A stretch of 64,000 bases of DNA. Origin: a virus. The notes below the pieces were generated by a model. It was not told the origin of the DNA, ran no database searches, and was given only the letters and a program-made list of their open reading frames with translations. The translations under genes and the position numbers were made by a program. Below are positions 34,702 through 55,764 of this stretch, piece after piece. Location of the stretch: positions 32,001 to 96,000 of IMG/VR virus record IMGVR_UViG_3300045988_173726. One strand, given 5' to 3'. Positions within the stretch are counted from its first letter, which is position 1. The number at the start of each line of letters is the position of its first letter.

Positions 34702-34815
34702 GTTTGCCCTCGGGCGGTATTTCTATAAAATTTCTATTTACTATTTCTATGCGGTATGATATGCTATGAGGGACGAGGTTATGCAACAAAGTGTTTGATA
34801 AGGAGACGGAGGGAA

Positions 34816-37277: not shown

Positions 37278-37481
37278 GTTTTGGGTAAGTCATTATAACT
37301 TCGGGTATTACAACAGGGCAGGCTTTTAGGGGGCGAGGTGGGATTGGGCTTCGCCCTTCCCTCGGGTTTACGAGAGGGCGGCTTCGCCCTTCTTACGGTC
37401 GTTTAGGGTAGCCAAAGCCCTAATTTTGTGGTAAAATAGCAGTACAACTTTGAATCAGTGAGTTTTTCTGGAGGGAAAAAG

Positions 37482-37757: not shown

Positions 37758-37772
37758 GAGGGGGTAATTTCG

Positions 37773-39905: not shown

Positions 39906-41021
39906 ATGGGAAGTATAAATCTATATAATCGCATCAGAGCGTTTATTCATGTTCCTAACTCGCTTGGCGAGCATGATTATCCGTTATATAAGCGTGCAGT
40001 AAAGAAGATGGACGGCAGTGATAACTATGTCGATACGGATGAGCATGACTGGGAGAGTGCGGCGGCACGGGATAAGGAGTGGTCGAGTCAGATAGGTGCG
40101 ACCTACAGTTCTCCGAGGAATGTAAGGCGTTTGTTTATCGGAGTGAACACTGTTGTGGTGCATTTCTGGTCGCCTATCGTAAAGAACGGGGTGCAGGGGA
40201 GTAGCCTTGTGTTAAAGCAGAGGTATCGGGATAGGATAGAGGCGAGTGAGCTAGGTGCGATAGTGCTTCACGGGGAGAGCGATAAGCATAAGGTGACAGG
40301 GGGTCGATGCGGGCTAGAGTCCTTAAAGCAGTGGTCTTTGCGGAACTTAGAGGAGTTGTATTTCGACTGGACAGCAGTGTATCGGGCAGGAAGTGCAAAG
40401 AATGATTTCTTTAACATAGCGATAGCGAATGTTTATCGGTCGAAGAAGATAGGAAACTATGCTCCGTTTAAGGAAGCGGTAGCAAAGTTGATTTCGAGGA
40501 ACGGTAATCTGGATAAGGACTATCCTAGGCTAAAGCGGGTAATGCTAATTGCGAATCTTGATAAGTATATCGAGGACGGGGCGGCGTATACGGGTAGCGG
40601 CGTAGATAGTGTAGAGAAGCTTGCGGATGACTGGGGGTATGACAGCGCGTTTGAGGGGTATATCGGGGCAGACGGCGTGAATCGTCATGGTTTATGCGAG
40701 ACTTTTGGTTTGTCGCCTAACATATACGAGTTCGACCAGCTATATTTGCTTGACAAAGTTAGAGATATTATGCGAAGTATCTCAAAGGCGAAGCAGGAAG
40801 CGAGGTCTACAGCGGGTTTATCTGAAAGCGCGGGGGAAAGCGCTATCGGAGAGTTTGAGCAGGCGGTTTTAATGCTAAAGAATTATACGGATGACAAGAC
40901 GATAGCGAAGATATTAAGCCATCTGGGGGATAACGACGCAGGGGAGCTTAGAAATGAGCTATTGACCGTCACAAAGGAAAATCAAGGCTGGTTTGAGAAT
41001 CTTTTGAGGAGTGCGAAATGA
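39906..41021 (+). CDS. Hypothetical protein
   Basis: 371-aa ORF with TAGGAGGTGG SD. Confidence 0.7.
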   Translation: MGSINLYNRIRAFIHVPNSLGEHDYPLYKRAVKKMDGSDNYVDTDEHDWESAAARDKEWSSQIGATYSSPRNVRRLFIGVNTVVVHFWSPIVKNGVQGSSLVLKQRYRDRIEASELGAIVLHGESDKHKVTGGRCGLESLKQWSLRNLEELYFDWTAVYRAGSAKNDFFNIAIANVYRSKKIGNYAPFKEAVAKLISRNGNLDKDYPRLKRVMLIANLDKYIEDGAAYTGSGVDSVEKLADDWGYDSAFEGYIGADGVNRHGLCETFGLSPNIYEFDQLYLLDKVRDIMRSISKAKQEARSTAGLSESAGESAIGEFEQAVLMLKNYTDDKTIAKILSHLGDNDAGELRNELLTVTKENQGWFENLLRSAK

Positions 41022-44000
41022 CGAACAAGAAGATATTAGCCTTATACGGGTATTTATTGCAGGATAGAGGGAAGTTAGAGGATTTGTGGAAAGCCCTAGA
41101 TAGGGTTGACGAGTGCGATGACGATGATATTCTAAGGGTTTTACAGAATAAAGACCTGTGCCGCATAGTGAGCGTGCTTGCGGGGGATAAGTTTAGCGGT
41201 TCAGTGAGTGGCGACATAAGTTTAGCTGACTTAGAGCAGGTCATTTCATATGTAAAGGACGAGTTAGACGAGGATTCGGACGATATAGATATAGACGAAG
41301 ATGAGGACGAGGGGGAAGAGGAAGATTACGAGGAGGACGAGGATTCGGACGAAGAGGACGGGGAAGCGGAGAGCAATTCCGTAACAGAGCAGTCCCACGA
41401 AGTCCCGCACGACACGGCGAGTTTATCAGAGAGTGATAAGGACGAGTTAGCACAGTCTGTGGTAGAGGCTTGTAAGAGCAGTATAGATAATGCGGTTACG
41501 GAGATTTATAAGGTCTATACTTCTATGTTCAAGTCTGGATATGGAGTTATTCAGCCAGAGGGAATACTGGCTGGGCAAAAGAGCGGTAGTATGATTAAGT
41601 TTCAACCGCTTGATTATGAGCATTTAATGCTTGTGCCTCGGAACTACTATTCCGACACATGGGAGTTATTAAAGCAGGAGCTTGGGTTAAAGGAGAGTAC
41701 GAAGCGGACTATTACTTACGGCGAGATACGGGACGGGTATAACTATTTCCCGTTTAAGATAATAGAGCTTGTATTCGGAAGATACTTGTCTAAAGAGTCA
41801 GATATAGCGGGCAAGCGCTATTGTAAATCGTCTGCGAGTGTGTCTTGGGAGTCGTATTGGGAGCAGGATGTAAAGCATAATATCGAGAGATATATCCGAA
41901 ACATCGTAACGGAGTATATAAAATCGTTAGCGGCGAATGAGAAGCTGGATATAAATAACTTGTCCAGTGTTTATGGGGCGGTTCGGCAGTTAGCGAACAA
42001 GACGATTCTGGCATATACGCCTGCGATTGTGATTTGCGAGGATTCTGGCGGTAGGTTTAAGATAAGGTTTTCGGATTACGCGCATAGGATAGACGCGACT
42101 CGGCTAAAGCGCATAGAGAAAAAGATTTTAGGGTGGGTAGGAACAAAAGAGGTCGAGTTAGACAGAGCATCTTTCTCATTGATGCGAGATAACGACAGCA
42201 TAAAAGAGATAGAGGTCGTAAGGGACAAGAGTTTATGCGGGACAGTCCCGTTATTTAGCTATATTGCGCTTAGAAAGTTAAGAGAGCAGGGTAAGCGTCC
42301 GTCCTATCAGAATTTGATATTAGGTCGCGCAGAGGACGACAGTATTTATATCGGCAACAGCAAGGATACGCCTTTTGGTGGCTTTAATACGGCTATAGGG
42401 TCGTTTGTCCTGCACTTGTCGGCGGGTTCTCGTTCTGGTAAAGGTGTTATGACGCTGAATATGATTGCGTCAGCGCTTGCTTCAAATGTAGCCGTGCCGT
42501 ATTTAGACAGTAAGCCAGATATGTCGTCTTTGCTTTTGTATATTGCGAAGAAGCTCGGGGTAAAGACCTTTGCGTTAAACGGTGGCTCGGAGTATGACAG
42601 TAAAGCGGATATAGGCGGGGTAGTTCGGGAGGTAATGTCGAGGGAGGTTTATCGGAAGCCCGCAGGACTTGAAGATTTAGCTGTGCCAGAGACAGCGTGG
42701 AGTGCGCTTAAGTATATAAAGGCTTTGGATTTCTGGATTTGGCTTTCTCCGAAGATTCAGTCTGGTGAGATAAAGACGAAGAGCGGGGATTTGTTAATCA
42801 TAGCGGACGAAGTTTGGCGTATGATAACGGGTTGGGCGCCTTTGTATGCAGAGTTGTTTGCGAAGAAGAGTGAGAGAGTTCGGAAGGGCGAGGATGACAC
42901 AGCGGTAGAGAGTGCGAAGTGGCTGTATAACTGGTATATGCGGGCGATGGGAAGCTGGCTTGCGGCGAAGGACGCTACGCTAAAGAACATAAAGCCGAAG
43001 TTAATGCTTATATATCAAGAGCATATAACGCCGTCATGGTCGTCTATGAGTAGCACAGAGTATAACGGAATCAACAAAGCGAATGCGTTTATCTTTAGGA
43101 CGCTTGAGAATATGGGTAAGCGCGGGTTTATAGGATATGACGAAGCGTCTATAGCCTACGGAGGTGTTTTACCTACCACTAAAATCCCGAATAAGTCAGA
43201 CTTTATCCAGCCTGTTTTAACAACTACAAAGGGAAAGAAGTTTTGTAATGTGAATGACAGGTATTTTGCGTGGGTAGATGATGTAGATTCGCAGGGCGTG
43301 AACGGGGATAGCACGACAGCGCAGTTTATAAAGCCGTTTTTGATTTTGAATGACGCAGACGAGAACGGGACATTTGTCCAGCAGTTAAAGGGGCAGTTAA
43401 AGAACTCGGTCGGAACGGACGAGAAGGTAGAGGAAATCATGAAGCAGTTCCGTGATAAGAACGGAAAGCTTGAGGAGTCTATCGGATTCGAGGGATATCT
43501 CCGTGAGATGACAGCTGACATGGAGGGATATAGCCTCGGGGAAGCGTTTAATGAGAGTTATCGTATTTTTGAAGAGGTGATAACGAAGTTTGGCTACATG
43601 GAGGCATCGGGAGCGAGCGACCCGATGGAGTATTTCAGTGACTTCCGTGCAGAGTTTATGCCGAACTGGAGTAGGATGGACAGAGCGCTTGCGGGTGAGA
43701 AGTTAGGAAAGGACGGAAGCGGAAGCGAGGACGGTATAGACAGTGAGTATTCTGGTGTAGAGTTTACGGGGGACGAGGGAGAAAGTGCAGGAGTAGAGAG
43801 CTTAGGCGAGAACGAGAATACAGGCTTAGAGGGCTTAGGCGAAAGTGGAGCAAGTGCGAGCGAGGCGGTTTCCGAGGAACCCGTAAGAAATGCGGAAAAA
43901 CCTGCTGGAAGTGTATTTGATAGTCTAATGCAGGGCAGGGAGAGTAATCTTTCGGATGAGTTTATCGGGTTTATGCCAGAGGGAAGCGAGGAAAACGGAG

Positions 44001-45061
44001 CATTTTCGGCGGGTAGTGAAGATTTCTCGGAGAAGAGTGATGAGTTTGACAGTGAACCGCTTACAGAGAGCGGAGCGTTTAATCACGGAGATAGTTATAG
44101 TGGTTATTCTGGGCGCTCGGCAGAAAAAGAGCCGATAAATGTTCGTGAGTATGAGTCCTCGGTGGGGTATAGTAATGCAATAACTGACGGGTCGAAGCTT
44201 GAGAACGCAAAAGGCGTTACGATGGTGCAGGGTATAGAGCGTATAAAGGCAGATGTTTCTAGGCTTTCGCCAGAGAACAGCGTGGATTGCACAAATCTTT
44301 CGCTAGGCGGCTTGCTTAGTCACGCGCCGCTGTTTACGAGTACGAAGTTTGGGGCAGACATGTATCGCAGGGAAGTCCTAAACGGGGTATTAGACAGGAT
44401 AGACAGGAGCATAGGGCGAGGTAATGTAACGAAGATAATTCTTACGGCGAACGGAATGATAGTAAACAACAAGCTAGTGAACTTAAACGGAGTCATGGGC
44501 GGGAATACGGGTCGTTATCTCTCTGATTTCATATCGTTTAAGGAGTTAGCGAAGCGATATAGCAGTTTAGCGCGGATTGGAATGGATACGGAGTATTTGA
44601 ACGCATTTAGCCTAGAGTATTATATCGACCCTTCCGACACAGAGCGGCTACTTGGGAGTATTTTCGACACATTTAGAGTTTTGGGGGTGGTAAACATCAA
44701 CAATCACGACATAAGGCGGCAGGAATATCTTACGATGGCGCAGAGACAGCGGATGTCGGCAGAGATGGAAGCGGTAAAGCGAAATGTAGCTATGTATCGT
44801 GCGACCGAAGAGATAGGGGCAGAGTTAAGCGCGAACGCGAGGATAAAGCCAGAGGATGAGGGCAGTCGGATGCGTAGGTTTACGCGGGCATTGCCGTTTA
44901 TGAGTAAGGCAGAGAGAGGACAGCGAAGCGGTAGAGGCAGTGGAATCGGTGGACTCATCGGAGCGGCGGTCTTTGGAGCGGCGTTTGGAATCGGGAAGCT
45001 CGGACGGGCAATCATTTCTGGGATACAGGAAGGTTCGGCAAAGAAGCATTACGGAAAGTAA
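41018..45061 (+). CDS. Giant P-loop NTPase (TraG/VirD4- or FtsK/HerA-like translocase signature) with poly-acidic N-terminal tract
   Basis: 1347 aa. Walker A-like HLSAGSRSGKGVMTLN; Walker B-like LLIIADEVW; acidic run DEDSDDIDIDEDEDEGEEEDYEEDEDSDEEDGE; Gly-rich hydrophobic C-terminus. Confidence 0.4.
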   Translation: MTNKKILALYGYLLQDRGKLEDLWKALDRVDECDDDDILRVLQNKDLCRIVSVLAGDKFSGSVSGDISLADLEQVISYVKDELDEDSDDIDIDEDEDEGEEEDYEEDEDSDEEDGEAESNSVTEQSHEVPHDTASLSESDKDELAQSVVEACKSSIDNAVTEIYKVYTSMFKSGYGVIQPEGILAGQKSGSMIKFQPLDYEHLMLVPRNYYSDTWELLKQELGLKESTKRTITYGEIRDGYNYFPFKIIELVFGRYLSKESDIAGKRYCKSSASVSWESYWEQDVKHNIERYIRNIVTEYIKSLAANEKLDINNLSSVYGAVRQLANKTILAYTPAIVICEDSGGRFKIRFSDYAHRIDATRLKRIEKKILGWVGTKEVELDRASFSLMRDNDSIKEIEVVRDKSLCGTVPLFSYIALRKLREQGKRPSYQNLILGRAEDDSIYIGNSKDTPFGGFNTAIGSFVLHLSAGSRSGKGVMTLNMIASALASNVAVPYLDSKPDMSSLLLYIAKKLGVKTFALNGGSEYDSKADIGGVVREVMSREVYRKPAGLEDLAVPETAWSALKYIKALDFWIWLSPKIQSGEIKTKSGDLLIIADEVWRMITGWAPLYAELFAKKSERVRKGEDDTAVESAKWLYNWYMRAMGSWLAAKDATLKNIKPKLMLIYQEHITPSWSSMSSTEYNGINKANAFIFRTLENMGKRGFIGYDEASIAYGGVLPTTKIPNKSDFIQPVLTTTKGKKFCNVNDRYFAWVDDVDSQGVNGDSTTAQFIKPFLILNDADENGTFVQQLKGQLKNSVGTDEKVEEIMKQFRDKNGKLEESIGFEGYLREMTADMEGYSLGEAFNESYRIFEEVITKFGYMEASGASDPMEYFSDFRAEFMPNWSRMDRALAGEKLGKDGSGSEDGIDSEYSGVEFTGDEGESAGVESLGENENTGLEGLGESGASASEAVSEEPVRNAEKPAGSVFDSLMQGRESNLSDEFIGFMPEGSEENGAFSAGSEDFSEKSDEFDSEPLTESGAFNHGDSYSGYSGRSAEKEPINVREYESSVGYSNAITDGSKLENAKGVTMVQGIERIKADVSRLSPENSVDCTNLSLGGLLSHAPLFTSTKFGADMYRREVLNGVLDRIDRSIGRGNVTKIILTANGMIVNNKLVNLNGVMGGNTGRYLSDFISFKELAKRYSSLARIGMDTEYLNAFSLEYYIDPSDTERLLGSIFDTFRVLGVVNINNHDIRRQEYLTMAQRQRMSAEMEAVKRNVAMYRATEEIGAELSANARIKPEDEGSRMRRFTRALPFMSKAERGQRSGRGSGIGGLIGAAVFGAAFGIGKLGRAIISGIQEGSAKKHYGK

Positions 45062-45082
45062 GGGTTTAAGCGGGGTTTAGGC

Positions 45083-45110
45083 GGGGTTAGGTAGCGCCTA
45101 GCCCCGTTTC
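45083..45110 (+). terminator. Candidate intrinsic terminator
   Basis: GGGGTTAGG-TAGCG-CCTAGCCCC stem-loop followed by GTTTCTAGTTT. Confidence 0.5.
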
Positions 45111-45187
45111 TAGTTTGGGGAGAATAGGGAGTTAGGTGATTTGGAAGTAAATGCGTGGAATAGTACAGAGTTGCTAGTAGATTATAA

Positions 45188-45235
45188 AGTAAAAGCTAGG
45201 CTATGTCTTTAGACGCACCAGAATGGCTTTTAAGG
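45188..45235 (+). repeat. 48-nt conserved non-coding repeat, copy a
   Basis: AGTAAAAGCTAGGCTATGTCTTTAGACGCACCAGAATGGCTTTTAAGG; the 3' half matches copy b perfectly. Confidence 0.6.
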
Positions 45236-45509
45236 CGTGTCTAGGTTTAGACGGACGCTTTTACAGGTTTTAGGTTTCTGCTTAGGATTAGGGGGTTTCT
45301 ATCGGCGCAGGACGGCTAAGAAAGGGGAATAGGGGGATTAGATGGGAGAGATAGAAACGGGCAGGGGGAGGGGCTTAAGTCGGCGGGACAGTACAGGGCG
45401 GGTAAGCTCTGGGTTTAGGGGTTTATTGGGCAAGGGGAAGCCCCGTAACGGGAGGAGGCAGTCGCCTAGGCAGGAGAGGGGTTTTGTAAGTTTAACAGTG
45501 AAATTGACA

Positions 45510-45557
45510 AGTAAAAGATAGACTATGCCCTGTGACGCACCAGAATGGCTTTTAAGG
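45510..45557 (+). repeat. 48-nt conserved non-coding repeat, copy b
   Basis: AGTAAAAGATAGACTATGCCCTGTGACGCACCAGAATGGCTTTTAAGG, preceded by TTGACA (45504-45509). Confidence 0.6.
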
Positions 45558-45739
45558 GGCATAATCGTTTAGGTGTAAAAGTGTATAGAGGTAAGAGACT
45601 TCCCTTTGAAATCCCTAATGAGTCGGCGGTTCAAAACGAGTGAAAACGGACGATAGAGGTGAGCGGGGGCTTGAGGCGGGGCAAAGTGGTATGGGGCTGT
45701 AGAGCGTTTACGGGGTAAACGGGAGATGCGGGTTTAGTG

Positions 45740-45768
45740 AGGACAAGTGGGGGATTGGGTGGTAAGAT
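45740..45768 (+). promoter_or_regulatory. Promoter candidate for mscS (xGGACA-17-TAAGAT)
   Basis: The -10 context GTGGTAAGATAG is identical to the 19914 promoter. The -35 AGGACA is imperfect. Confidence 0.45.
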
Positions 45769-45786
45769 AGTGGCTGGAGGGTTTTT

Positions 45787-46569
45787 ATGAAGATTTTAGC
45801 AGGGTTAGTGGCACTAGTTGTCACGGCAGGGTGCATGATAGCGGTTGGGAAGGTGTCGGATAAAATATACCAAAGGAAGCACGCGCTAAAGATAAAGTTT
45901 ATCGCGGGAGCGTTGCGTCTTTTAATCGTAGCGGTGTTTATCTGCGCAGAGATGTATATATTTGGTGGCTCGGACGGGTTAGGCAGCAAGATACTCGGTG
46001 GTTCGACTTTGATTGTGGCAGTTTTAACCTTTACAGCGCAACAAGCATTGGGAAATATCATAAGCGGGTTTTCTATAAGTTTATCGAAGCCTATCGAGGT
46101 CGGACAGAAGGTTAAGATAGTGCAGGGGTCAAATATCATAGCAGAGGGGATAGTAAAGGATATGTCGGTTCGGCATATCATAATAACGACATTTGACGGG
46201 CAGAGCTGTATTGTGCCAAACAGCATAGTAGAGAACAGTGTGATATTGAATACGAATTACGAGAAGGATGTAGGTAATTTTGTAGAGTTTGAGGTGGGTT
46301 ACGGGACAGATATAGAGTTTGCGAAGGCTTTAATCGTGGCAGAGTGTTCAAAAGAGCCTTTAATCATTCGTCCTGTGAAGGTATCCGTAAATCGGTATAC
46401 AGCAAACGGGGTAGTGTTAAAGCTTACGATATGGACAGAGCATTTGGACGACAACTTTGCGATATGCGGGCGGCTTAGGGAGAGTATGTTAAAGCTGTTT
46501 ATAAGTTTCGGGATAGAGTTGCCGTATAATCATGTTACGGTAGGTAGACTAGGCGACACGGAGCGTTAG
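45787..46569 (+). CDS. mscS: MscS-family small-conductance mechanosensitive channel
   Basis: Three N-terminal TM helices, then FTAQQALGNIISGFSISLSKPIEVGQKVKI...GIVKDMSVRHIIITTFDGQSCIVPNS (pore helix plus beta-domain signature). Confidence 0.7.
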   Translation: MKILAGLVALVVTAGCMIAVGKVSDKIYQRKHALKIKFIAGALRLLIVAVFICAEMYIFGGSDGLGSKILGGSTLIVAVLTFTAQQALGNIISGFSISLSKPIEVGQKVKIVQGSNIIAEGIVKDMSVRHIIITTFDGQSCIVPNSIVENSVILNTNYEKDVGNFVEFEVGYGTDIEFAKALIVAECSKEPLIIRPVKVSVNRYTANGVVLKLTIWTEHLDDNFAICGRLRESMLKLFISFGIELPYNHVTVGRLGDTER

Positions 46570-48163
46570 AAGGTAAGTTTCTATAGGTACAAGGCTGAAA
46601 GAAAGCAAGTTTTATGGTTAAGCGCGGGGAGATTAGTTTATCGGGGGTTTGCTAGGGTTTTTGTGTCATGTGTTTGGGGCGTAGTTTAGCGGTAGCTTTG
46701 CGGTGGCGTTTGTGTGTGAAAGAAAGTTTAGGTTGGTACAAGTCCAGCGAAACGAAAGTTTAGATATATGGAGAGCGCTAGAAAGGAAGTTTAGGATTTA
46801 GAGCGTGACACGGGGTTTGCCCTTAGACGGGTTGGCTTTCCCTTATTTGGGACACAAGTTTAAGGGATGTAGGCGGGCTTTACGAGTAACAGAGTGCTGT
46901 CTTGGGAATCGACTGGAGGTGGCTTGAGGCTGTGACACATGCTGGGAACAGGTGATTTTAGAAGCAAGAAAGTAAACTTCCTAGGAACTTCTGCGTGGAA
47001 AGGTTGGTTTATCTGAATAAGAAAGCTTCTAAAGCAAGTTTAGGGCTTACGGGAAATCCGTAAGCCCTTTTTAATGTTGGGGTTTTGGGCAGAGAGTTAG
47101 GCGGGTGACGGGGTTGGGAAGGTAAGTTTCTTGTCGATTTCGGGGCTAAAAAGAAAGTTTACGGGGTTCGCGGGATGGCGGGTTTCCATTGAGCTACGCT
47201 TCTAAAAAGCAAGTTTCCCCGAAGAGTTTGATTGTGAAAAGAAAGTTCCGCTGGGTGGATGGGGTTTCGTTGAAAGTAAGTTTCCTCGTAAATTCTGGCA
47301 GGAGAAAGGAAGTTTCTGGTGATGGCGGGGCGCTGGGTGTTTATAAGGTTAGGCTAAAAGTTGACAGATAAACTAGGGTAATGCCTTGTAATAGTTATAA
47401 AGGCAATTCTGGTAGGTGTGCTGGTTTGCTGGATTGGTTTGCGATTACGGTTGTTTGTTTTGTAATCCGTGCATAAATTCAAGTTTCTTGAGGACTTGCT
47501 TGGATAGAAAGTAAGTTTAAGTAATACCTAGCTGTAATTGAAGAAAAATCAGTAAATGAGCTTTGAGTTAGAAAGCAAGTTTCTCGGTATACTTTTAGTT
47601 CAAAAAGGAAGTTTATAAACGGACGAGTATCCGACAAGTTTTCGATTTGATTTTAACGGGAAAATCTAGGGGGTTGAGGCTTTGTTTATCAGTTAAACAG
47701 TTGGACTCTTGTCATTTTGAAGTTAGAAAGTAAGTTTCAGAGATACCTATAGAAGCGAAAAGTAAGCTTCTAGTATTTAAGAATTGGCTGGTTGTTGAGG
47801 GAAAACTGCTTTGATACTTGAGAATTTCTTTGCGCTATTGAAAATCGTTAGAAAGTAAGTTTCAAGTGATACTTTGGCAGTCGAAAGGAAGTTTCCGTTT
47901 TTAGCTATGCAAAGCGGATTTTCCGTGTCGTTGAAACTTTCTTTCCTGGCTGGTTTTGTGATTTCGTTAGAAAGTAAGTTTCCCCTTAAACATCAGTGTT
48001 AGAAAGTAAGTTTCAGATATACCAAACGACTTGAAAGAAATCGCAAAATATGGTATAGTTGAGGTGCAGTTAGAAGAAAGTAAGTTTCCGAGATACCTGT
48101 ATACGAAGAAAGGAAGTTTCAGCGAATCAAAGAAAAGCTATCTAGTATCTTGAAAGTAAGTTT
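46569..48163 (+). repeat. ORF-free array of at least 25 copies of the 13-mer GAAAGNAAGTTTC (iteron/operator- or promoter-like units)
   Basis: Perfect GAAAGTAAGTTTC at 47272, 47725, 47850, 47969, 48001, 48075 and 48151. GAAAGGAAGTTTC at 47304, 47882 and 48107. GAAAGCAAGTTTC at 47570. GAAGGTAAGTTTC at 46569 and 47118. Many 1-2-mismatch copies, and one inverted copy at 47932. Confidence 0.85.
47043..47072 (+). terminator. Strong intrinsic terminator inside the repeat array
   Basis: Perfect 10-bp stem GGGCTTACGG-GAAAT-CCGTAAGCCC followed by TTTTT. Confidence 0.75.
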
Positions 48164-48327
48164 CGCCTTTCCGAGCGTTTTTCCTTGGAAAGCTAAAGTG
48201 CGCTACACCTTGATGTTCTGCGAGCTTTCTTTTAATCAGAGTGGATTCCTTGTATTGGAGCGAGTACACAGGTATTTCGTCCTATAAATTTTATTACTAA
48301 TTTTATGCTTATTTGGAGGTATGAGTT

Positions 48328-49362
48328 ATGAGGCTAGTTAAGATTCTGTCTTTTGCGTGCGCTGTTTCGCTTTTAGCGGCAAGTGCTACAGCTTGTGGTA
48401 AAGGGAAGGTTTCCGTAAACGCGGAAAACAGCAAAGAAGCTGTGAAGCCTGCGAATGTCGAGATAAAGGAGGCTCTTAATAAGATGTATGAGAGCGGTGG
48501 AATGACTTTGACGCGGGTAGATAAGAACACGACAATTACGACAATCTATGACAATTCTGGACAGGCATATGTGCAGTCTGGATATACGGCTGGGGTTTAT
48601 CTCTTAGGAGATAAGCTTTTGACCGTGAAAGAGGGCGTTGACGGGGGGAGTCCTAAGTTTGTTTTGACAGATGACATTTCGCCTGCGCGTATGGTAGAGG
48701 TAGCGTGTGATTTTGCAGATAAGGGCGGTGCAAGTTTAACAGAGACTACGGAAACGGGAAAAGAGCCTAAGGATACTTCGGAAAGGTCGTTTGAAATAGC
48801 GGTTTCTGGCAGTAATATCTACGAGCTTTATAAGTCCGTGAGTAAGAGCTACGCAGAGAATATTTTGCCTCTATACAATTACAAAAATTCGGACGAGTTT
48901 GTGGCCGGTGATAAATTCGTTGTCGGAATTTCTACTACAGAGAATAATTTGAGCCTCGACATGTATATAGTGTCGCATAACGCTCCGAATGAGCGGGTGC
49001 ATATCGTAGGGTTTGATGGCTATGTGCCGCTGGGCGGCTGGTCGCTTGACGGGTCGATTAATAGTGAGATGGATTTAGGCGACTACGATGGCATTAAGGA
49101 AAAATTACAGGCAATGCAGAATGACCTGTCGGAAAAGATACAGAAATATGTTGCGGAGCATGAGGAAGAGTTGCTTGTGAGCGAGGCTACAGCAGAAACA
49201 AATGTAGGTAAGGAGACTGTAGACGGTAGCGAGAGCGTAGAGGAGAGTAGCATAGAAAGCGGGTCGGAAGAGAGCGCCGAGAGCAGTTTATCTGAAAGCT
49301 TGAAAAGCACGGAAGAAAGCACAGAAGTATCCGATACAAGTGAGCAGGAGTCGGGAAATTGA
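48328..49362 (+). CDS. Lipoprotein, unknown function, acidic Ser/Glu-rich C-terminus
   Basis: GGAGG SD. Signal peptide MRLVKILSFACAVSLLAASATAC with a lipobox-like ATAC. Confidence 0.65.
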   Translation: MRLVKILSFACAVSLLAASATACGKGKVSVNAENSKEAVKPANVEIKEALNKMYESGGMTLTRVDKNTTITTIYDNSGQAYVQSGYTAGVYLLGDKLLTVKEGVDGGSPKFVLTDDISPARMVEVACDFADKGGASLTETTETGKEPKDTSERSFEIAVSGSNIYELYKSVSKSYAENILPLYNYKNSDEFVAGDKFVVGISTTENNLSLDMYIVSHNAPNERVHIVGFDGYVPLGGWSLDGSINSEMDLGDYDGIKEKLQAMQNDLSEKIQKYVAEHEEELLVSEATAETNVGKETVDGSESVEESSIESGSEESAESSLSESLKSTEESTEVSDTSEQESGN

Positions 49363-49401
49363 GCTATAGAGACGCGCGGTATCGCATAATAGGTGCTAGA
49401 T

Positions 49402-50052
49402 ATGGATTTAGTGACGGCTCTTCAAATGTACGGGTATCACTCGGTAGAAGAGGTTAAGATTGAGATAACTACAAGGGTTTATAGGCGGCTTGTAAAAGAG
49501 AACCATCCAGATAATACGGAGAGTCCCAGATATTTGGTTGGGGATATTACGGATGCGCGGGGGTTGCTAAACAGCGTAGCAGACGGTAGCTATTCGTCTA
49601 ACAGTAGCTTCGCAAACGCTCAAAGAAATAGCGGATTTAACAAGAGAAGTTATAATAGTCAGCCTTTTACGCGGGAGAATGATTTTAGAAGCGGAAGTAA
49701 TGTTAGATATGGCATGCCCTATCCCGTGAAGTTAGAGGGTTTGCAAGAACTGTTTCAGCCTGGTCGTGTCTACTATGGGGACGATAACTATTTTGTTCTT
49801 GATAGAGGCGTTCGGCGCGTTGTTTATGTGATGTTTAAGGCACAGGTAACGCAGGGTGGGGAGAAAGTAGAATACACTTTCCCGAAGAAGGTTTCGGAGA
49901 GTAATAAGTATCAGCTGTCGTTATCGCTTGAAAAGGCAATGGGTTCGGCAGTCATTGAGGTTTATGGAAGAAGATTTGAGGTTTCCAGTAGTGTCCGTAG
50001 CCTTAAAGTGGGATTTAATGGAGTAACTATTGTGCTTGATATAATGTTTTGA
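49402..50052 (+). CDS. J-domain (DnaJ-like) protein
   Basis: ORF 49393..50052 trimmed to ATG 49402. The N-terminal helix-HPD pattern EEVKIEITTRVYRRLVKENHPDN contains the HPD tripeptide. Confidence 0.55.
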   Translation: MDLVTALQMYGYHSVEEVKIEITTRVYRRLVKENHPDNTESPRYLVGDITDARGLLNSVADGSYSSNSSFANAQRNSGFNKRSYNSQPFTRENDFRSGSNVRYGMPYPVKLEGLQELFQPGRVYYGDDNYFVLDRGVRRVVYVMFKAQVTQGGEKVEYTFPKKVSESNKYQLSLSLEKAMGSAVIEVYGRRFEVSSSVRSLKVGFNGVTIVLDIMF

Positions 50053-50063
50053 CGGAGGAAGAT

Positions 50064-50570
50064 ATGATTAAGAAAAGTGGAGAAAACGGTTCACCTGCTA
50101 GAAAGACGCTTCATGTTCTGGTTGGTAATTACGGTGAGTTTCATAGAATCTTGCAAGAGGGCGTTGTTTATACGCTTTCCCCGCGCGGAGGCTACGAGAT
50201 AGATATGTCTGTAAACGGAGTGTTGTATAGCACTTTTGACGCAAGGAGTATAAGCCTTGCAGAGATAGTGTCTACGATGCCCGTTCGGGATAGGCATGTA
50301 GCGGTAGAGTTTGTGGGGGTCTTGTCAAAGCTTTGCACGATAGATGTTTTGTCGGAAATTATGGCAAAAAAGTATAGACTGGTTGTAACAGGCGGGGACG
50401 CGCTGTCTGGAATTTACGATTTGCTTTGTAAGACCTATGGTGAATCTGGTTTTAGTGTGTCTATGGACGACTTAAAGACAGTGTGCAGGAGTAGGGCAGA
50501 TTTTGTAGGGGCGTATCGTGCATTTGCGGGAGTAAACGGTGTTATGGGAAATCGCGGGATGCGGGGCTGA
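50064..50570 (+). CDS. Hypothetical protein
   Basis: ORF 50049..50570 trimmed to ATG 50064 after GGAGGAAG. Confidence 0.6.
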   Translation: MIKKSGENGSPARKTLHVLVGNYGEFHRILQEGVVYTLSPRGGYEIDMSVNGVLYSTFDARSISLAEIVSTMPVRDRHVAVEFVGVLSKLCTIDVLSEIMAKKYRLVVTGGDALSGIYDLLCKTYGESGFSVSMDDLKTVCRSRADFVGAYRAFAGVNGVMGNRGMRG

Positions 50571-50783
50571 TTGACAGGGTGTTTATTGGACAAATCTAAT
50601 GGTTAGTTTGTAATTGCCATTAGATTTAAGGCTTCTGTGTTAGGTTTTGGGCGCTTCGGTGTGCGAGACAAGTGACAGAGATGTCGCGACAGGTTTATCT
50701 GGGTATGCTTGGTTTGATAGTTGAACCTTGCATTTTGACTAGTAAGCTAATTTGTAGCTAGACCTGTGAAAATTCAAAGCGTT

Positions 50784-50821
50784 GCGGGGAGCGGATAGAA
50801 GAAATCCGTTTCCCGCTTTTT
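50784..50821 (+). terminator. Intrinsic terminator
   Basis: GCGGGGAGCGGA / TCCGTTTCCCGC stem (G-T pairs) followed by TTTTT. Confidence 0.6.
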
Positions 50822-51191
50822 ATTTCTAATCTTTTGTGTGTAATCTTTGTGGTCTTGGAAGAATATCCTAGACCCTATTAGAATTAAGCAGTACACATGG
50901 CTTTCTTGCTTATAAATTTAGGCTTGCTTTGCCGCGCCTTTTGGCTGTTTATCTGCTGATTTATTTTGCGTCTTTTCGTGTAGAAAATGGCGTGCAATTT
51001 TGCGCGATTTCTAGGATTTTATAGGGCTTTATTTTTCAAAATTCCGTGCGAGGGCGTGCAGAGCGGGTTTTCCTAGGGGCGCGGGAAAATTTTTGGCAGG
51101 GGCAAAGGCAAAATCCTGTCCAAAAGAAACAAGTACACTTAAGGAGTCGCAATTTGATAAAGTTCTCCGTTTATTCGGAAAAGGAGTTATT

Positions 51192-52328
51192 ATGAGGCGC
51201 AGTACAATCAAAAAGATAGCAGTTATTTCTTTATCAGTAATGGCAATACTTATGCTTTCGCTTGCAATAATTTTTAATCATTATTATAGCAAGCTACGGC
51301 GAGCGAGTAATAGTAATGCCTTGGCTACCCGTCAAAATGCGTTGGAGTCTGCGAGTGTTGGTTTGGATTTTGATGGCTTATCGGAAGAGCTGGACAAAAG
51401 TATCTTAGATGCGTTGACTAGTGAGATTTTGTGTGAGCAATCTAGGGTAATAGCGGATGAACAGGTAAAGGCGCTAGGGTCGGAGCTTGAGAAGCAGTCT
51501 ATTTCAAATATCTTGCTTGTAGGTGTAGACAATCGAGAGGGTAAGTTTGACGGAAATAGCGATACTATCATAATCGTGTCTATAGATAGGGCTAGGAAGC
51601 GTATAACGCTAACGAGTGTGCTTAGAGACACACTGGTTTATCTGGACGGCTACGGGAGCAGGAGGATTAACGCGGCATATGCGCTTGGTGGAGCAGAGGG
51701 CTTGGAGTCAGTCCTAAAAGAGATATACGGAATAGATTTCTCTGGTTTTCTGGTAGTAAACTTTAATGCAGTTAGAAACGCGGTTGATAAGGTAGGTGGT
51801 ATTGACTTAGCACTAAGTAAAGACGAGATACGGCTAATGAACGCCTATGTAAACGAGCAGAATAGGCTCATAGGGGACGACCCAGAGAAGGATGTGATTC
51901 GTAGCTATAAAGGTGGGGTGATGCACTTAAACGGCAATCAAGCCTTGGGGTATGCTCGGAATCGGTATGTAGGCACAGATTTTCATAGGACGATGCGGCA
52001 AAGAGTTGTAATTGAGAAGTGTTTGTCAAAGTTAAAGCGGTTAAATGTGCTTGAGCTTGGCAGTTTAGCGGACAGTGTTCTTCCAGAGGTTTATACAGAT
52101 TTAACGGAAAAAGATGTAGCTTCGCTATTACTAGTTGGCATTGACCTTGGTAGCTACAAAATATCGAGTCTTACGCTTCCTGTAGACGGAAGTTTTGATT
52201 TTGTAAAAGTCGGCGGGCAGGATGTGATAAAGGTAAATTTTAGGAAGAACGCTGATACATGGTATCAAACAATCTTAGCGAGCGACAGCGATGCGCTCAA
52301 AATTGATAGAAAAGTAGTTGACGATTAA
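51192..52328 (+). CDS. LytR-CpsA-Psr (LCP) family cell-wall glycopolymer ligase
   Basis: ORF 51093..52328 trimmed to ATG 51192 after AAGGAG. TM anchor, then NILLVGVDNREG...SDTIIIVSIDRARKRITLTSVLRDT...RINAAYALGG...LNGNQALGYARNRY...DFHRTMRQ. Confidence 0.75.
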   Translation: MRRSTIKKIAVISLSVMAILMLSLAIIFNHYYSKLRRASNSNALATRQNALESASVGLDFDGLSEELDKSILDALTSEILCEQSRVIADEQVKALGSELEKQSISNILLVGVDNREGKFDGNSDTIIIVSIDRARKRITLTSVLRDTLVYLDGYGSRRINAAYALGGAEGLESVLKEIYGIDFSGFLVVNFNAVRNAVDKVGGIDLALSKDEIRLMNAYVNEQNRLIGDDPEKDVIRSYKGGVMHLNGNQALGYARNRYVGTDFHRTMRQRVVIEKCLSKLKRLNVLELGSLADSVLPEVYTDLTEKDVASLLLVGIDLGSYKISSLTLPVDGSFDFVKVGGQDVIKVNFRKNADTWYQTILASDSDALKIDRKVVDD

Positions 52329-52386
52329 CGCGCAATCTGCTAAACTGTCTTTAGCAGTTAGGTAGTTTGCAGGAGGCACGAGAGGT

Positions 52387-52458
52387 ATGGTTCTGGTAGG
52401 AGTGCTTTTGCTGGTAGGTGTAGTTTATCTGGTAGTCACGGCAAGTGAAAACGAATAA
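52387..52458 (+). CDS. Candidate 23-aa hydrophobic micro-peptide
   Basis: ATG after GCAGGAGG...GAGAGG. Sequence MVLVGVLLLVGVVYLVVTASENE. Confidence 0.3.
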   Translation: MVLVGVLLLVGVVYLVVTASENE

Positions 52459-52470
52459 GGGGGTAAGGAA

Positions 52471-52956
52471 ATGGCAGACAGAAAGTGGGACAGATTTTCC
52501 CGTGACGGTGGCTTGCAGTTGGAAGGTGACGCTTATAAGGGCGATTTCGAGGAGCGTTATTATGTGGGTGCATACGGTTATGGGCTTCATGTGTCGGGAG
52601 ATGAGCCGTATTTCTACGGTGGCATCAAGTATGCGGGCTTCCAGAATGTGTGTGAAGAGGTAAACGAGCCATCCATTAATGTTCTTGACCCGCTTCGTAG
52701 AGATGTTTCCGAAGTTGACGCGCTTAAGGACGCCGAAGAGCTGAATGTCATGGATTGGTTTGAGAACGGATTGTTGCCGATTGAGGTTTCCGCAGGTCTT
52801 AATGACGGAGAGCTTGTAATGAGCGCAACGGGCAAGGTTTATGCGGAACAGGGCAGTGATGCAGTTTATTTCGCTGAATATCGGTCTGTGTGGAAGAGTT
52901 GGCATCCGTTTGAGACAAAGAAGGAAGAACTCTTATATCTTCCGTTTGTTGACTAA
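52471..52956 (+). CDS. Hypothetical protein
   Basis: 161-aa ORF with AAGGGGGTAAGG SD. Preferred over the overlapping minus-strand ORF 52351..52905. Confidence 0.65.
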   Translation: MADRKWDRFSRDGGLQLEGDAYKGDFEERYYVGAYGYGLHVSGDEPYFYGGIKYAGFQNVCEEVNEPSINVLDPLRRDVSEVDALKDAEELNVMDWFENGLLPIEVSAGLNDGELVMSATGKVYAEQGSDAVYFAEYRSVWKSWHPFETKKEELLYLPFVD

Positions 52957-52974
52957 GAATTTGGAGGGTAAGTC

Positions 52975-53031
52975 GTGATTTATATTATTGTGCTGGCAGG
53001 CTTCGCCCTGCTAGTGCGTTTAAGTAGATAA
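52975..53031 (+). CDS. Candidate 18-aa hydrophobic micro-peptide
   Basis: GTG after GGAGGGTAAGTC. Sequence (M)IYIIVLAGFALLVRLSR. Confidence 0.25.
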   Translation: MIYIIVLAGFALLVRLSR

Positions 53032-53047
53032 CGGGGAGTAGTTGGAA

Positions 53048-53245
53048 ATGGGAGAGAATAATCGCCTTAAACTTGCGAGTAAGCCAAAGCCCGAACAGTT
53101 TTTCACGATTTCTGGTCGGGATAAGTTGCTGGAATCTACGGGTTATGTAGTTTTTCGGGACGGATTAACTTTTGCAGAGTATCTGGACGAAGATGACGGT
53201 TCTATCTATTTAATGAGGTGTGAGTTACGCTATGCGGCTAAATGA
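53048..53245 (+). CDS. Small hypothetical protein
   Basis: ORF 53042..53245 trimmed to ATG 53048 after GGGGAG. Confidence 0.5.
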   Translation: MGENNRLKLASKPKPEQFFTISGRDKLLESTGYVVFRDGLTFAEYLDEDDGSIYLMRCELRYAAK

Positions 53246-53663
53246 GTATTGGAGACGGCTTAATCGTAGCGGGCTTCTTTGCTATCGTTGGACAGGTTTT
53301 GCGGAGTTTGCGGCTTGGTCGGAAGCGAACGGCTATCGTCCTTGGAGATTGCTCCATCGTAAAGACAAGAATGCGCTTTATAGCCCAGAAAACTGTTTCT
53401 GGGCTAGTTCCGTCCCAAGGAGTGAACCTGTTGTAAAGTGCGCAAGCTATGAAAAGACGGTTCGTATGCTCGGGCTTTATGACGTGCTGTTAGCAGAGAT
53501 TACAGAGGATGCAAAGCGAGCAGAGGCATGTTTAGAGGCTCTGTCCGAATCGGATTGGGTGAGTAGCAAAGATACTGCGCTTAAGCTTAAGAAAGAGGTG
53601 CAGTTGCTTATGCGGCGGGTTTCAGAAATCCGTTTAACTGCCCTTTATGACAAAGAGAAATAA
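53232..53663 (+). CDS. Phage DNA-binding-type protein with Y-x-P-x-N-C-x-W motif
   Basis: ORF 53220..53663 trimmed to ATG 53232. FAEFAAWSEANGYRPWRLLHRKDKNALYSPENCFWAS resembles the ...GY...L.R.D....Y.P.NC.W segment seen in many phage HNH-associated/DNA-binding proteins. Confidence 0.35.
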   Translation: MRLNEYWRRLNRSGLLCYRWTGFAEFAAWSEANGYRPWRLLHRKDKNALYSPENCFWASSVPRSEPVVKCASYEKTVRMLGLYDVLLAEITEDAKRAEACLEALSESDWVSSKDTALKLKKEVQLLMRRVSEIRLTALYDKEK

Positions 53664-53701
53664 CGGGAAAGATTTTTGGCTAGAGGCAGGGGTGAGTTAG
53701 A

Positions 53702-54376: not shown

Positions 54377-55629
54377 TAGAGATAAAGATTAGACAAGACT
54401 TAAAGATTACGCAGTTGTCCTCAAGGAGTGCAAAGAGTTTGCAGGCTATCATAAAGGCGGTAGAGGCGCATAAGGGGGAGACAGTTAATCTAAACTTCTA
54501 TCAAGTCGTTGTGACGAATGTCTGGAAGTGTGTGGAGTTTGGGAATCTGCTTTGCAAGTACGATGTGCGGATGGAGTTTTACAGTGCGCCGGAAGCGGCG
54601 AAGAGCGCAAAGGTGTTGCTTAAGCTTGGGGGTTTACCGGAGGATAGAGTTGTAAATCATGTGGTTGTCTCAAAGGCTGTAGAGGTTAAGCCCGCGCTTC
54701 GTGACGCATTAAAGGGCATGGCAGAGAAGATGCGTGTTATTGACGGGGAGCTTTGCCTTAAGTTAAGTGAGTGCGGGTTTCGGCAGATAGGGAATATGCG
54801 AACGCTTGAGTCGGTGGTAGAGGTTATAGCCTATCGAAAGACGCAGGAGGATTGCGCAGGCGTAGACAAGTTTATGCTTGATGTTACAGGCATTTCGATG
54901 GTGCAGGACGTGTATACTCGTATGGATGAGTTTGAAAGACAGGTCATTGCGCTCGGGTTTACGCCTCGGTACGCCGCAGAGGGTGAATACGGGGAGGCGC
55001 TGTTAAACGCGATTCATAATACGCTTGCATTTTCAAGGAGTCGTGATTTAAGCCCGAAAGAGCGTGTGGAGTTGTTAAACAGGAAGTTACCTGTAAATTC
55101 GGCGGTGCTGTTTATGACTTTCTGTAATGGGCAGTCTAGGTCAAATTCGCAGAGCATTTGTATAGATAACGAGCCTACTACGAGTAGACCCGCTATTTAT
55201 CTCGGCAGTTCGGAAGAGAAGAACGGGTATTCGCTAAAGTTTATGGTATTTCCGATAGAGGATAACTTTGTAGTGAGTGAGGATTACGCCTTAGATAACG
55301 AGGGGGAGTATCTGGGTAATATAAAGTCGTATGTAATGCCGATAGCCTTAGAGGATATAGGGTTTGGAGCAGACGATGTAGAGTTTTTCGGGAAGAAGTA
55401 TTTTGTAGCTTTGCCGATAGCGGATTCGGCAGGAGAGCCGGAGTTATATAACTTGTATGTGACAGACGGGGATAGGCTTACGACTCGGCAAGTATCGGTT
55501 GCGGAGTATATGAAAGCGGTGTTTGACGACAGAGGAGTGGTTTATGACGTGCCACTACTGAATCGCTGTATCGAGGAGAGCAACAGAAATATCGAGATAT
55601 GGAAGAATCGGAAAGATAGGAGCAAGTAA
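54373..55629 (+). CDS. Hypothetical protein
   Basis: 418-aa ORF; its GTG start overlaps the previous stop (GTGA). Confidence 0.65.
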   Translation: MIEIKIRQDLKITQLSSRSAKSLQAIIKAVEAHKGETVNLNFYQVVVTNVWKCVEFGNLLCKYDVRMEFYSAPEAAKSAKVLLKLGGLPEDRVVNHVVVSKAVEVKPALRDALKGMAEKMRVIDGELCLKLSECGFRQIGNMRTLESVVEVIAYRKTQEDCAGVDKFMLDVTGISMVQDVYTRMDEFERQVIALGFTPRYAAEGEYGEALLNAIHNTLAFSRSRDLSPKERVELLNRKLPVNSAVLFMTFCNGQSRSNSQSICIDNEPTTSRPAIYLGSSEEKNGYSLKFMVFPIEDNFVVSEDYALDNEGEYLGNIKSYVMPIALEDIGFGADDVEFFGKKYFVALPIADSAGEPELYNLYVTDGDRLTTRQVSVAEYMKAVFDDRGVVYDVPLLNRCIEESNRNIEIWKNRKDRSK

Positions 55630-55754
55630 ACTCAAGTTTCTCTGTTAGAGAGCAGTATAAACTCAAGTTTCGGCTATATGCGGTTGCGGCTCTGCTTCGG
55701 CGGTAACAGGGGTCTTGTCCCGCAGAAAATCTGTGGAAAGAGAAAGAAAGTTTC
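55627..55754 (+). repeat. Mini-array of the AAGTTTC motif upstream of the helicase gene
   Basis: TAAACTCAAGTTTC at 55627 and 55658 (31 bp apart). GAAAGAAAGTTTC at 55742, followed by GGGGTATACC and then the ATG. Confidence 0.6.
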
Positions 55755-55764
55755 GGGGTATACC

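Follow-up and report, generated by a model that had tools for sequence, protein, structure and literature searches.

Phased and Co-oriented Boxes in a Non-coding Array at a Gene-Module Boundary of an Uncultured Jumbo Phage

The window analyzed here is a stretch of 64,000 nucleotides from the IMG/VR virus record IMGVR_UViG_3300045988_173726 (positions 32,001 to 96,000), which is part of an uncultured jumbo phage of about 215-295 kb, apparently of oral origin. Between the stop codon of an mscS-like gene (46569) and the ATG of a putative lipoprotein gene (48328), it contains a 1,758-bp gap that is free of open reading frames (ORFs), in which asymmetric boxes are repeated in one direction and paired at distances of three helical turns. 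This array is a real, strongly non-random and conserved cis-element, with a new motif and a new layout of phased protein-binding repeats, which are themselves of a familiar kind. We favor, with a probability of roughly 40%, the reading that it is a phased operator or roadblock for a phage-encoded regulator, which would bind it cooperatively at the boundary between gene modules.

Structure and Conservation of the Array

At up to one mismatch, the box GAAAGNAAGTTTC matches the window 20 times, where 0.57 matches are expected and where 100 shuffles gave no more than 3. Nineteen of these matches lie inside 46569-48164 and the sole outside match is at 55742. Twelve of the 19 are perfect and 7 have one mismatch; 18 are on the + strand and 1 is on the - strand. 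Once degenerate copies that lie in phase are counted too, the + strand boxes of the array number about 26, in agreement with the count of at least 25 in a preliminary description of this DNA, made from the sequence alone. The direction of the boxes is nearly uniform, with 25 of 26 copies running along the gene strand, and the commonest variant carries an A to G change at box position 4.

Start-to-start spacings of 31 or 32 bp, which amount to whole helical turns, join the boxes into 12 pairs and one triplet. A scan with a position weight matrix counted 13 such box pairs in the array; of 20 Markov-shuffled versions of the window, 19 had no pair at all. The preliminary description had placed the pair members 32 bp apart and a single inverted copy at 47932. 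The pairing is real, with a spacing of 31-32 bp and with several of the reported coordinates 1 too low, and the inverted copy is present as a perfect - strand match at 47933-47945. No helical phasing over long range was detected between the pairs in the window.

The left half of the array (46569-47320) is G-rich and its boxes are degenerate, while the right half (47475-48164) has a lower GC content and near-perfect boxes. The two members of a pair differ in the right half: the first reads (c)GTTAGAAAGTAAGTTTC and is followed after 3-4 bases by (G/T/A)ATAC(C/T), and the second is GAAAGGAAGTTTC. An extended unit of the kind proposed earlier, in the form (c)GTTAGAAAGTAAGTTTC-N3-4-(G/T/A)ATAC(C/T)-N8-9-GAAAGGAAGTTTC, is correct for the right half (47500-48120). 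Given that the motif counts, the pairs, this unit and an intrinsic terminator inside the array (47042-47072) were all recovered, the earlier description was confirmed apart from its shifted coordinates.

The array is kept in every one of 15 close relatives, at 77-95% identity. These relatives are contigs of 214-272 kb from IMG/VR and metagenome assemblies, several of which seemingly come from the human mouth and one certainly from saliva. Identity to the window is 94% at box positions and 81% at non-box positions. All 12 pairs hold the spacing of 31 or 32 bp in 15 of 15 sequences, and insertions and deletions are 2.6 times rarer inside pairs than between pairs; the spacing is thus visibly under selection. 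The earlier general reading of the region as a large protein-binding platform is supported by these two observations, boxes conserved over spacers and a spacing that is held, the latter also in distant lineages whose base composition is very different.

The motif is also kept in distant lineages of the phage family, which have a GC content of 21-32%, proteins 22-58% identical to those of the window and a rough synteny with it. There the boxes read (T)ATAAAAGTAAGTTT(A/C) and occur in pairs or triplets, with a spacing of 32 bp in the lineages of 21-28% GC and of 31 bp in the lineage of 32% GC. They lie in ORF-free regions of 1.2 to >6 kb that start just after a terminator. The core common to the window and the distant lineages is AAAG(T/G)AAGTTT, within a site of about 13 bp whose palindromic ends are not kept. 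The GAAA...TTTC inverted core noted previously did not hold up: its ends are not conserved and the distant relatives often have ...TTTA, for which reason we consider the site asymmetric. The GTTAGA flank is not kept in the distant relatives either. Box copy number differs between lineages by gain or loss of whole units, and the regular 75-76-bp gaps seen in AT-rich relatives result from duplication of a unit of about 140 bp.

A scan of 185,579 bacterial and archaeal species, with one genome each, gave only single, chance-level matches and no such array. A host regulon or a prophage origin was rejected on this result, and the binder is probably phage-encoded, since none of the genomes scanned carries such an array. 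In the scan of bacterial genomes for AT-rich pairs, 6 of 78 single matches (L159, L163, L172, L178, L206, and L220) were to GC-rich Streptomyces, which suggests a conserved Streptomyces sequence that fits the pattern by chance.

Non-coding status was evident from the same 15 close relatives. An excess of third-position substitutions was present in the last 66 nt of the mscS-like gene and nowhere in the array. No conserved ORF was found in the array, nor any ORF of more than 60 aa, and the region is ORF-free as had been stated; hidden coding was thus rejected. Rfam yielded no relevant family, either at gathering scores or, on the array, at E up to 1. According to ARAGORN, the window and 11 related loci are free of tRNA genes, and TRF detected no simple tandem repeat in the array. 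A literature search with the motif string returned unrelated eukaryotic papers only. The features of the array, of a second box locus and of the flanking genes are as follows.

46569..48164, + strand: whole box array; about 26 + strand boxes with the core AAAG(T/G)AAGTTT(C/A), plus one inverted copy
46569..46613, + strand: pair 1; boxes 46569 and 46601, 32 bp apart; the first flank GTTAGA holds the stop codon of the mscS-like gene
46718..46793, + strand: triplet of degenerate boxes 46718, 46750 and 46781; spacings 32 and 31 bp
46968..47042, + strand: degenerate single boxes 46968, 47017 and 47030; box 47030 borders directly on the stem of the terminator
47042..47072, + strand: intrinsic terminator; 12-bp stem, 3-nt loop and T-run; 93-98% conserved in relatives
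47118..47161, + strand: pair; boxes 47118 and 47149, 31 bp apart
47205..47249, + strand: pair; boxes 47205 and 47237, 32 bp apart
47272..47316, + strand: pair, both perfect; boxes 47272 (T at the N position) and 47304 (G at the N position)
47475..47528, + strand: pair; boxes 47475 (degenerate) and 47507, then AATACC at 47523-47528
47571..47615, + strand: pair; boxes 47571 and 47603, with TATACT between them (47588-47593)
47726..47770, + strand: pair; boxes 47726 and 47758, with GATACC between them (47742-47747)
47818..47845, + strand: weak sigma-A-like promoter match, TTGAGA-16-GAAAAT, 9/12; directly upstream of box 47851
47851..47895, + strand: pair, both perfect; boxes 47851 and 47883, with GATACT between them (47868-47873)
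47933..47945, - strand: sole inverted perfect copy, GAAAGAAAGTTTC on the - strand; kept in all close relatives
47970..48023, + strand: pair of perfect first-type boxes 47970 and 48002, then TATACC at 48018-48023
48031..48059, + strand: best host-type promoter match of the region, TTGAAA-17-TATAGT, extended TGn, 10/12; 94-99% conserved
48076..48120, + strand: pair, both perfect; boxes 48076 and 48108, with GATACC between them (48092-48097); about +10 to +54 of the predicted transcript
48152..48164, + strand: last single box, perfect; 164 nt 5' of the lipoprotein-gene ATG
55628..55671, + strand: second locus, variant pair AAACTCAAGTTTC; boxes 55628 and 55659, spaced by 31 bp; starts at the upstream gene's stop codon
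55742..55786, + strand: second locus, helicase-gene unit; perfect box 55742, GGGG, TATACC and ATG 55765; partner box 55774-55786 in codons 4-8
45787..46569, + strand: mechanosensitive-channel-like gene, upstream flank; 260 aa; Pfam MS_channel_2nd, E 1.4e-10
48328..50570, + strand: downstream three-gene cassette; putative lipoprotein (344 aa), J-domain-like protein (219 aa, HPD motif) and 173-aa protein

The mscS identity that had been given to the upstream gene agrees with the mechanosensitive-channel domain listed above.

The assemblies of the relatives bear on a reading of the array as a DNA-entry or packaging signal, that is, an injection pause or a terminase start site, which we regard as highly improbable. 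Three of the relatives' contigs end at the terminator and several relatives' assemblies break inside the array; assembly breaks, however, are expected in repeats anyway. The injection stop signal of phage T5 lies in a 1.66-kb non-coding repeat region (bioRxiv 10.1101/866236). Like that region, the one studied here is about 1.7 kb of ORF-free, repeat-filled DNA in a large phage and is conserved across relatives whose genes and many of whose proteins have diverged; unlike it, the region is dominated by one asymmetric motif and has no DnaA boxes. A 195-aa protein encoded beside the array in AT-rich relatives (described below) has weak structural matches that include small terminases, none of them significant. 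No terminase genes were found nearby, and the extra box pairs at gene starts elsewhere would be left unexplained. The packaging site that had been listed among the candidate roles thus found no support.

Boxes at Other Gene Starts

The only other box locus in the 64 kb is the 136-bp gap before the gene of a UvrD-like helicase. The unit at this gene is invariant in the relatives from the box through the start, and two relatives have one additional 31-bp unit at the locus. ATG 55765 is considered the real start because the upstream frame is broken by insertions and deletions in the relatives and the sequence from the box to the start is invariant. The homologue of ORF 53702 has a box right against its Shine-Dalgarno sequence in two AT-rich lineages (L272 and L321). 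A single box pair is placed between a terminator and the ribosome-binding site (RBS) of an actin-like (ParM/MreB-like) gene in the lineage of 32% GC, and of the 6 lineages examined besides that of the window, 4 have boxes 5' of the actin-like gene; the array in the window is not beside such a gene. At all secondary loci the boxes point along transcription, and at the helicase gene, L272 and L321 they abut or bracket the Shine-Dalgarno sequence and the start codon.

The actin-like protein matched Pfam MreB-like_C (1.9e-7) and, weakly, the ParM N-terminal domain (0.014). Its gene (L315, 10001-11152) has homologues in L316-L320 and is conserved within the phage family, where it is preceded by a gene for a secretion-type ATPase (T2SSE) and followed by one for a coiled-coil protein of 720-943 aa.

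Transcription Signals around the Boxes

Ordinary intergenic regions of the window contain a terminator and then a promoter of the host sigma-A type, TTGAC(A/T)-17-TA(A/T)(G/A)AT, and the boxes are not the general promoter of the phage. The arrays follow terminators and precede operons. Within the array of the window, the promoter match at 48031-48059 is wrapped in boxes: a box pair lies upstream, a degenerate box (48034) overlies the -35 element and three boxes fall within the first 100 nt of the transcript, whose start is predicted near 48066, a few bases before the next box unit. The same order of boxes, sigma-A promoter, boxes and gene recurs in the distant L272 (TTGAAT-17-TATAAT) and weakly in L315. 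No promoter match on the gene strand was found before 47818 in the stretch behind the terminator (47073-47800), where about 10 equally conserved boxes lie (47118-47800). Sigma-A promoters were not found in every array unit, and promoter-like matches were not enriched over shuffles.

It is distinctly unlikely, in our estimation, that the boxes are tandem phage promoters, each box or pair being read by a phage sigma factor or RNA polymerase to give very high downstream or non-coding expression. The strict co-orientation of the boxes with genes and their position upstream of operons would suit such promoters. So would the 0-19 nt between the boxes' ends and the RBS or start codons at the helicase gene, L272 and L321, since a start at the 3' end of a box would then give a short usable leader, and the TATA-like element (GATACC, GTAT, or TATAGT) that follows the first boxes. 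A possible reader is encoded by ORF 7839-8573, with a Sigma70_r2 match that is below the Pfam threshold (E 0.008, 16 bits vs. a cut-off of 24); this ORF had no sequence match among solved structures. Boxes, however, occur at two loci only in the 64 kb, and host-type promoters are found at many operons; no box precedes the gene of the tail protein (58435). At the helicase gene, TATACC is directly followed by the ATG, and the partner box falls within the coding sequence; box 47030 abuts the terminator hairpin. No catalytic DxDGD motif of RNA polymerases was found in the + strand ORFs of at least 60 aa of the window, and the large neighboring proteins had no match among solved structures. Moreover, we know of no promoter layout with two identical sites three turns apart whose members are differentiated.

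A partial likeness to the late promoters of Bacillus phage SPO1 had been pointed out, with due caution, in the preliminary description. These promoters read CGTTAGA(N17-19)GATATT (PMC3601020). Several first boxes of the array are likewise preceded by CGTTAGA, the late -35 element, and then followed by GATAC(C/T). The spacing here is 15 bp instead of 17-19, the second element is another one, GTTAGA is absent in the distant relatives and most genes lack the motif, which is confined to two loci. The analogy to SPO1 late promoters of the gp33/34 type is not supported, on spacer, second element, conservation and distribution alike.

Even less probable than promoters, in our view, is an RNA-level element, in which the boxes in the 3' untranslated region of the channel gene and in 5' leaders would bind an RNA-binding protein that acts on translation or stability, and the RNA of the array would serve as a sponge in the manner of CsrB and CsrA. 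The strict strand bias is consistent with this, as is the presence of boxes at predicted 5' ends of transcripts (48066 onward; L272) and, as expected of sponge targets, around Shine-Dalgarno sequences and start codons. With the A to G change at box position 4, a GAAA/UUUC mini-hairpin with the loop G-N-A-A-G would retain a G-U pair. The stem of this hairpin, however, has only 3-4 A-U pairs; box positions 1 and 13 vary with no sign of covariation, and in other variants the pairing is lost. The exact spacing of three DNA turns has no obvious rationale in RNA; the middle third of the array, which lies behind a strong terminator and in which no promoter was detected, is equally conserved; and there is no Rfam match.

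A Proposed Phased Operator or Roadblock

We infer that a protein binds the boxes, that it acts on DNA rather than on RNA and that its effect is repression or insulation. A DNA-level role is favored on three grounds. The spacing brackets 31.5 bp, i.e., three turns of B-DNA, and is held within 1 bp over large evolutionary distances; about 10 boxes lie behind the strong terminator, in a stretch with no promoter match on the gene strand, and are conserved no less than the others; and the potential RNA hairpin amounts to 3-4 A-U pairs with no covariation. We weighed this evidence more heavily than that for an RNA-level role. A link to transcription is indicated by the co-orientation of 25 of 26 boxes and of all secondary loci.

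In the mechanism that we propose, a sequence-specific and most probably phage-encoded protein would bind the asymmetric boxes, the full site being about 13-16 bp, and its units would bind head-to-tail on one face of the helix. Given that the sites are 31-32 bp, or three turns, apart, binding may be cooperative, in pairs in the window phage and in triplets in its AT-rich relatives. The occupied array would silence or insulate the downstream operon and stop read-through as a polar roadblock, and the surplus sites, serving as a sink, would sharpen or delay the switch. Silencing or insulation is the most likely job considering the location of the array at the boundary between the module of replication genes and the next long string of co-directional genes, the terminator, the host-type promoter wrapped in boxes and the sharing of the motif with a few gene starts. 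The boxes that bracket the RBS and ATG of the helicase gene, and those at a few other operon starts in relatives, fit a small regulon under the control of a single protein.

The stoperators of mycobacteriophages L5 and Bxb1 are sites of a gp71-type repressor; they are 13 bp long and asymmetric, and are proposed to impose a polar block to RNA polymerase. The boxes described here resemble them in being 13 bp long, asymmetric and nearly all in one direction relative to transcription, and in having copies in intergenic junctions that overlap stop and start codons. Unlike stoperators, which are single sites spread genome-wide in small temperate phages, the boxes form three-turn pairs or triplets and are massed in a 1.7-kb array, with only one further box locus in the 64 kb. 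Should a multi-site roadblock be confirmed, the stoperator principle would be extended to a clustered, cooperative form.

Similarity is also found to the ComK boxes of Bacillus, which are AAAA-N5-TTTT pairs at distances of 2, 3 or 4 helical turns. Both have an A-run, 5 bases and a T-run, and are paired on one helix face, and the type II spacing of ComK boxes (about 31 bp) matches the spacing here. In contrast to ComK boxes, the phage boxes are best conserved in the central 5 bases, asymmetric, directly repeated and arrayed in dozens, and no such box pairs were found in the bacterial genomes of the 185,579-species scan.

In the AT-rich lineages, a conserved, all-helical protein of 195-199 aa is encoded directly upstream of the array. 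Two of its stretches look like helix-turn-helix motifs when judged by eye, which makes it a candidate for the binder. The structural model of the 195-aa protein reached a predicted local distance difference test (pLDDT) score of 81, and that of the 173-aa cassette protein was unusable (pLDDT 41).

Several observations weigh against an operator or roadblock. The model of the 195-aa protein has no significant structural neighbor among solved structures, and the 195/199-aa candidate has no detectable homologue in the 64-kb window. Pfam and PHROGs scans of all neighboring ORFs revealed no DNA-binding family, and the window yielded no binder. Most array units lack a recognizable promoter that they could regulate, so that a set of 13 pairs looks larger than an operator would need. 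The predicted promoters are matches to a consensus only, and in the AT-rich relatives such matches do not exceed chance. The three cases in which a box abuts the Shine-Dalgarno sequence (the helicase gene, L272, and L321) would equally suit a translational RNA mechanism or a promoter that starts at the box end. Finally, phasing by three turns also fits iterons, as a Flavobacterium Rep_3 plasmid has similar repeats phased by 33 bp.

Comparison with Plasmid Maintenance Elements

That last point belongs to a doubtful, though serious, alternative, in which the array is a maintenance element of the plasmid type, i.e., the iterons of an origin or of copy control, or the partition centromere, of an episomal jumbo phage. 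The binder would in this case also autoregulate promoters, as the plasmid proteins RepA, ParR, ParG, and omega do. Like the iterons of Rep_3/RepA systems (oriR/incA of phage P1; pFPS-S6-1), the boxes are direct repeats in one orientation, about 26 in number, phased by whole turns and changing in copy number by whole units between lineages. Unlike these iterons, they are accompanied by no rep gene, DnaA box, unwinding element or skew switch; their pairs are dispersed irregularly over 1.6 kb; and boxes also occur at gene starts, co-oriented with transcription. Co-orientation at a gene start is found at every independent locus and is not required of a pure origin or centromere.

Two plasmids have repeats of comparable shape. 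In pFPS-S6-1 of Flavobacterium psychrophilum (L322, 2085-2190), a Rep_3 plasmid, there are three presumed iterons phased by 33 bp with the core AAAAGGACTTTT, located 5' of the rep gene. In a small mobilizable metagenomic plasmid related to it (L301, 4420-4540), four direct repeats of AAAAGTAAGTTTT spaced by 22/32/22 bp lie beside a Rep_3 gene. Both can be cited in favor of a maintenance element; those plasmids, however, belong to Bacteroidota, and the presumed iterons are possibly shaped like the phage boxes by coincidence.

Partition centromeres that double as operators, such as parC/ParR of R1, parH/ParG of TP228 and the omega heptads of pSM19035, are cooperatively bound direct repeats; they are contiguous, with a period of 7-20 bp, and the same repeats occur at promoters of maintenance genes. 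The phage boxes likewise form a direct-repeat array and, in four other lineages, lie directly 5' of what by its sequence appears to be a ParM/actin-like gene, which is the position of parC in ParMRC systems. They differ from these centromeres in their pairs at 31-32 bp. Moreover, the actin-like gene is not followed by a small adaptor gene: the next gene encodes the coiled-coil protein of 720-943 aa, and Pfam detected no ribbon-helix-helix or helix-turn-helix adaptor.

The three TnpB/omega-RNA elements of the window and its accessory genes (channel, LytR, and lipoprotein) hint at long residence in the cell. A J-domain protein is always encoded beside the array, and J-domain proteins together with DnaK remodel initiation complexes in phage lambda. 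The weight of these points is reduced by several negative results. No gene of an initiator, ParA, ParB or ParR type was found in the window or beside the arrays; Pfam and PHROGs scans, which covered the flanking ORFs and further ORFs of the window, revealed no Rep or initiator domain, and a Rep_3 query against the six-frame translation of the window gave nothing. No DnaA box (up to one mismatch) was found in 40508-56653, and the lowest GC content in 200-bp windows is 0.33 vs. about 0.45 for the genome, so that no stretch is marked for unwinding. GC skew over the array is +0.1 to +0.6 and stays positive on both sides without a change of sign, which says nothing on unidirectional replication. 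A bidirectional replication origin, for which GC skew had been recommended as a check, is accordingly disfavored.

It is unlikely, yet conceivable, that the boxes are the common site of a master protein in an undescribed family of oral jumbo phages able to live as episomes, the array serving as maintenance locus of the iteron or centromere type and as timing sink. It would then be tied to the actin-like segregation protein and the J-domain chaperone recruiter, with a regulon that includes the helicase and actin-like genes. If this were true, the array would be a combined platform for replication, partition and timing, not described for phages of this size. An origin or centromere, if true, would imply plasmid-like maintenance in jumbo phages.

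Whichever of these readings applies, no cis-element is more conspicuous than the array in this uncultured family of 200-300-kb phages, which comes from human oral and other metagenomes and most of whose proteins have no recognizable function. The retention of the motif from 21% to 45% GC and the selection on its spacing point to a conserved system of protein-DNA recognition. The binder, once found, would provide a first handle on gene-module switching or maintenance in these phages, and would also yield a simple sequence signature by which family members could be spotted in metagenomes. As a family-wide signature of unexplored jumbo phages, it is worth following up, and simple binding and expression tests could decide between the alternatives.

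Genome Context and Other Sequence Elements

The window is attributed to an uncultured jumbo phage because its close relatives are 214-272 kb long and there is no match at the DNA level among deposited phages. No nucleotide match to the window was found among GenBank phages or plasmids, and its PolA and helicase proteins are at most 30% identical to those of any deposited phage. The host is probably Firmicute-like, judging from the Shine-Dalgarno sites, the promoters of sigma-A type and the best protein matches. The gene content includes a family A DNA polymerase, Toprim-like and SbcCD-like proteins, the UvrD-like helicase, a tail protein, BspA-type repeat proteins and a LytR-family protein. 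All real-looking ORFs of at least 140 aa in the window are on the + strand. GC skew, computed per 2 kb, ranges from +0.24 to +0.42, also across non-coding stretches, an extreme asymmetry whose sign never changes.

In every lineage examined, homologues of the lipoprotein gene and of the J-domain gene adjoin the array. The J-domain gene of the window (49393-50052), which follows that of the lipoprotein, encodes 219 aa with a J-domain signature (...LVKENHPDN...), and its homologues in relatives have weak Pfam DnaJ matches (E 0.0012-0.017). The cassette, consisting of the genes for the lipoprotein, the J-domain protein and a protein of about 170-200 aa, lies on the downstream side of the array in the window and on its upstream side in the AT-rich lineages. 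Unlike the first two cassette proteins, the third has no detectable homology between the window phage and the AT-rich lineages.

Three TnpB-like genes were found in the window, at 5174-6746, 28371-29974, and 62082-63485 (443, 457, and 354 aa, respectively). Each is followed by a full-length match to IS605-orfB-I (omega RNA) of 189-197 bits, i.e., three copies of one insertion-element family are present within 64 kb of phage genome. A second ORF-free region (45062-45786; 725 bp) is very G-rich, with a GC skew of up to 0.56, and an element of about 45 nt (...GACGCACCAGAATGGCTTTTAAGG...) occurs in it twice, near 45205 and 45530. An element of about 100 nt is present in two intergenic regions (20490-20600 and 37140-37260) with the sequence GAGGCTTT(T/C)CTATTTTATA(G/A)ACTC...AAATACCATAG...GGCTATACCA; a small RNA gene and a miniature mobile element are both conceivable. 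Two further ORF gaps of about 0.8 kb each (34119-34970 and 36979-37772) have terminators and no box, and possibly contain small unannotated genes.

In the AT-rich relatives, the ORF-free region extends 3-4 kb beyond the array, and assemblies often break there (L240, 9600-12468; L272, reverse strand, 1-1990; L321, 12500-16770). Other short repeats fill these extensions, such as TTACCTTTAGATTTA, TTGCCTTAAATTATGTAA, and GGTTGTAGCCTTCAAATTA. Arrays in contigs from outside the family were also noticed. L313, an unrelated metagenomic contig of 7 kb, has box triplets spaced by 33 bp with TAGGATACC after the middle box (2880-3140, reverse strand); they have the architecture of the phage family and lie directly after a gene for 207 aa with weak resolvase and HTH_23 matches. 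Long tandem arrays with periods of 22-39 bp are present in contigs from freshwater and other environments (L279, L305, L244, L310, and L025); their unit contains AAAGTAAGTTT or, in L025, GAAAGCAAGTTTT.

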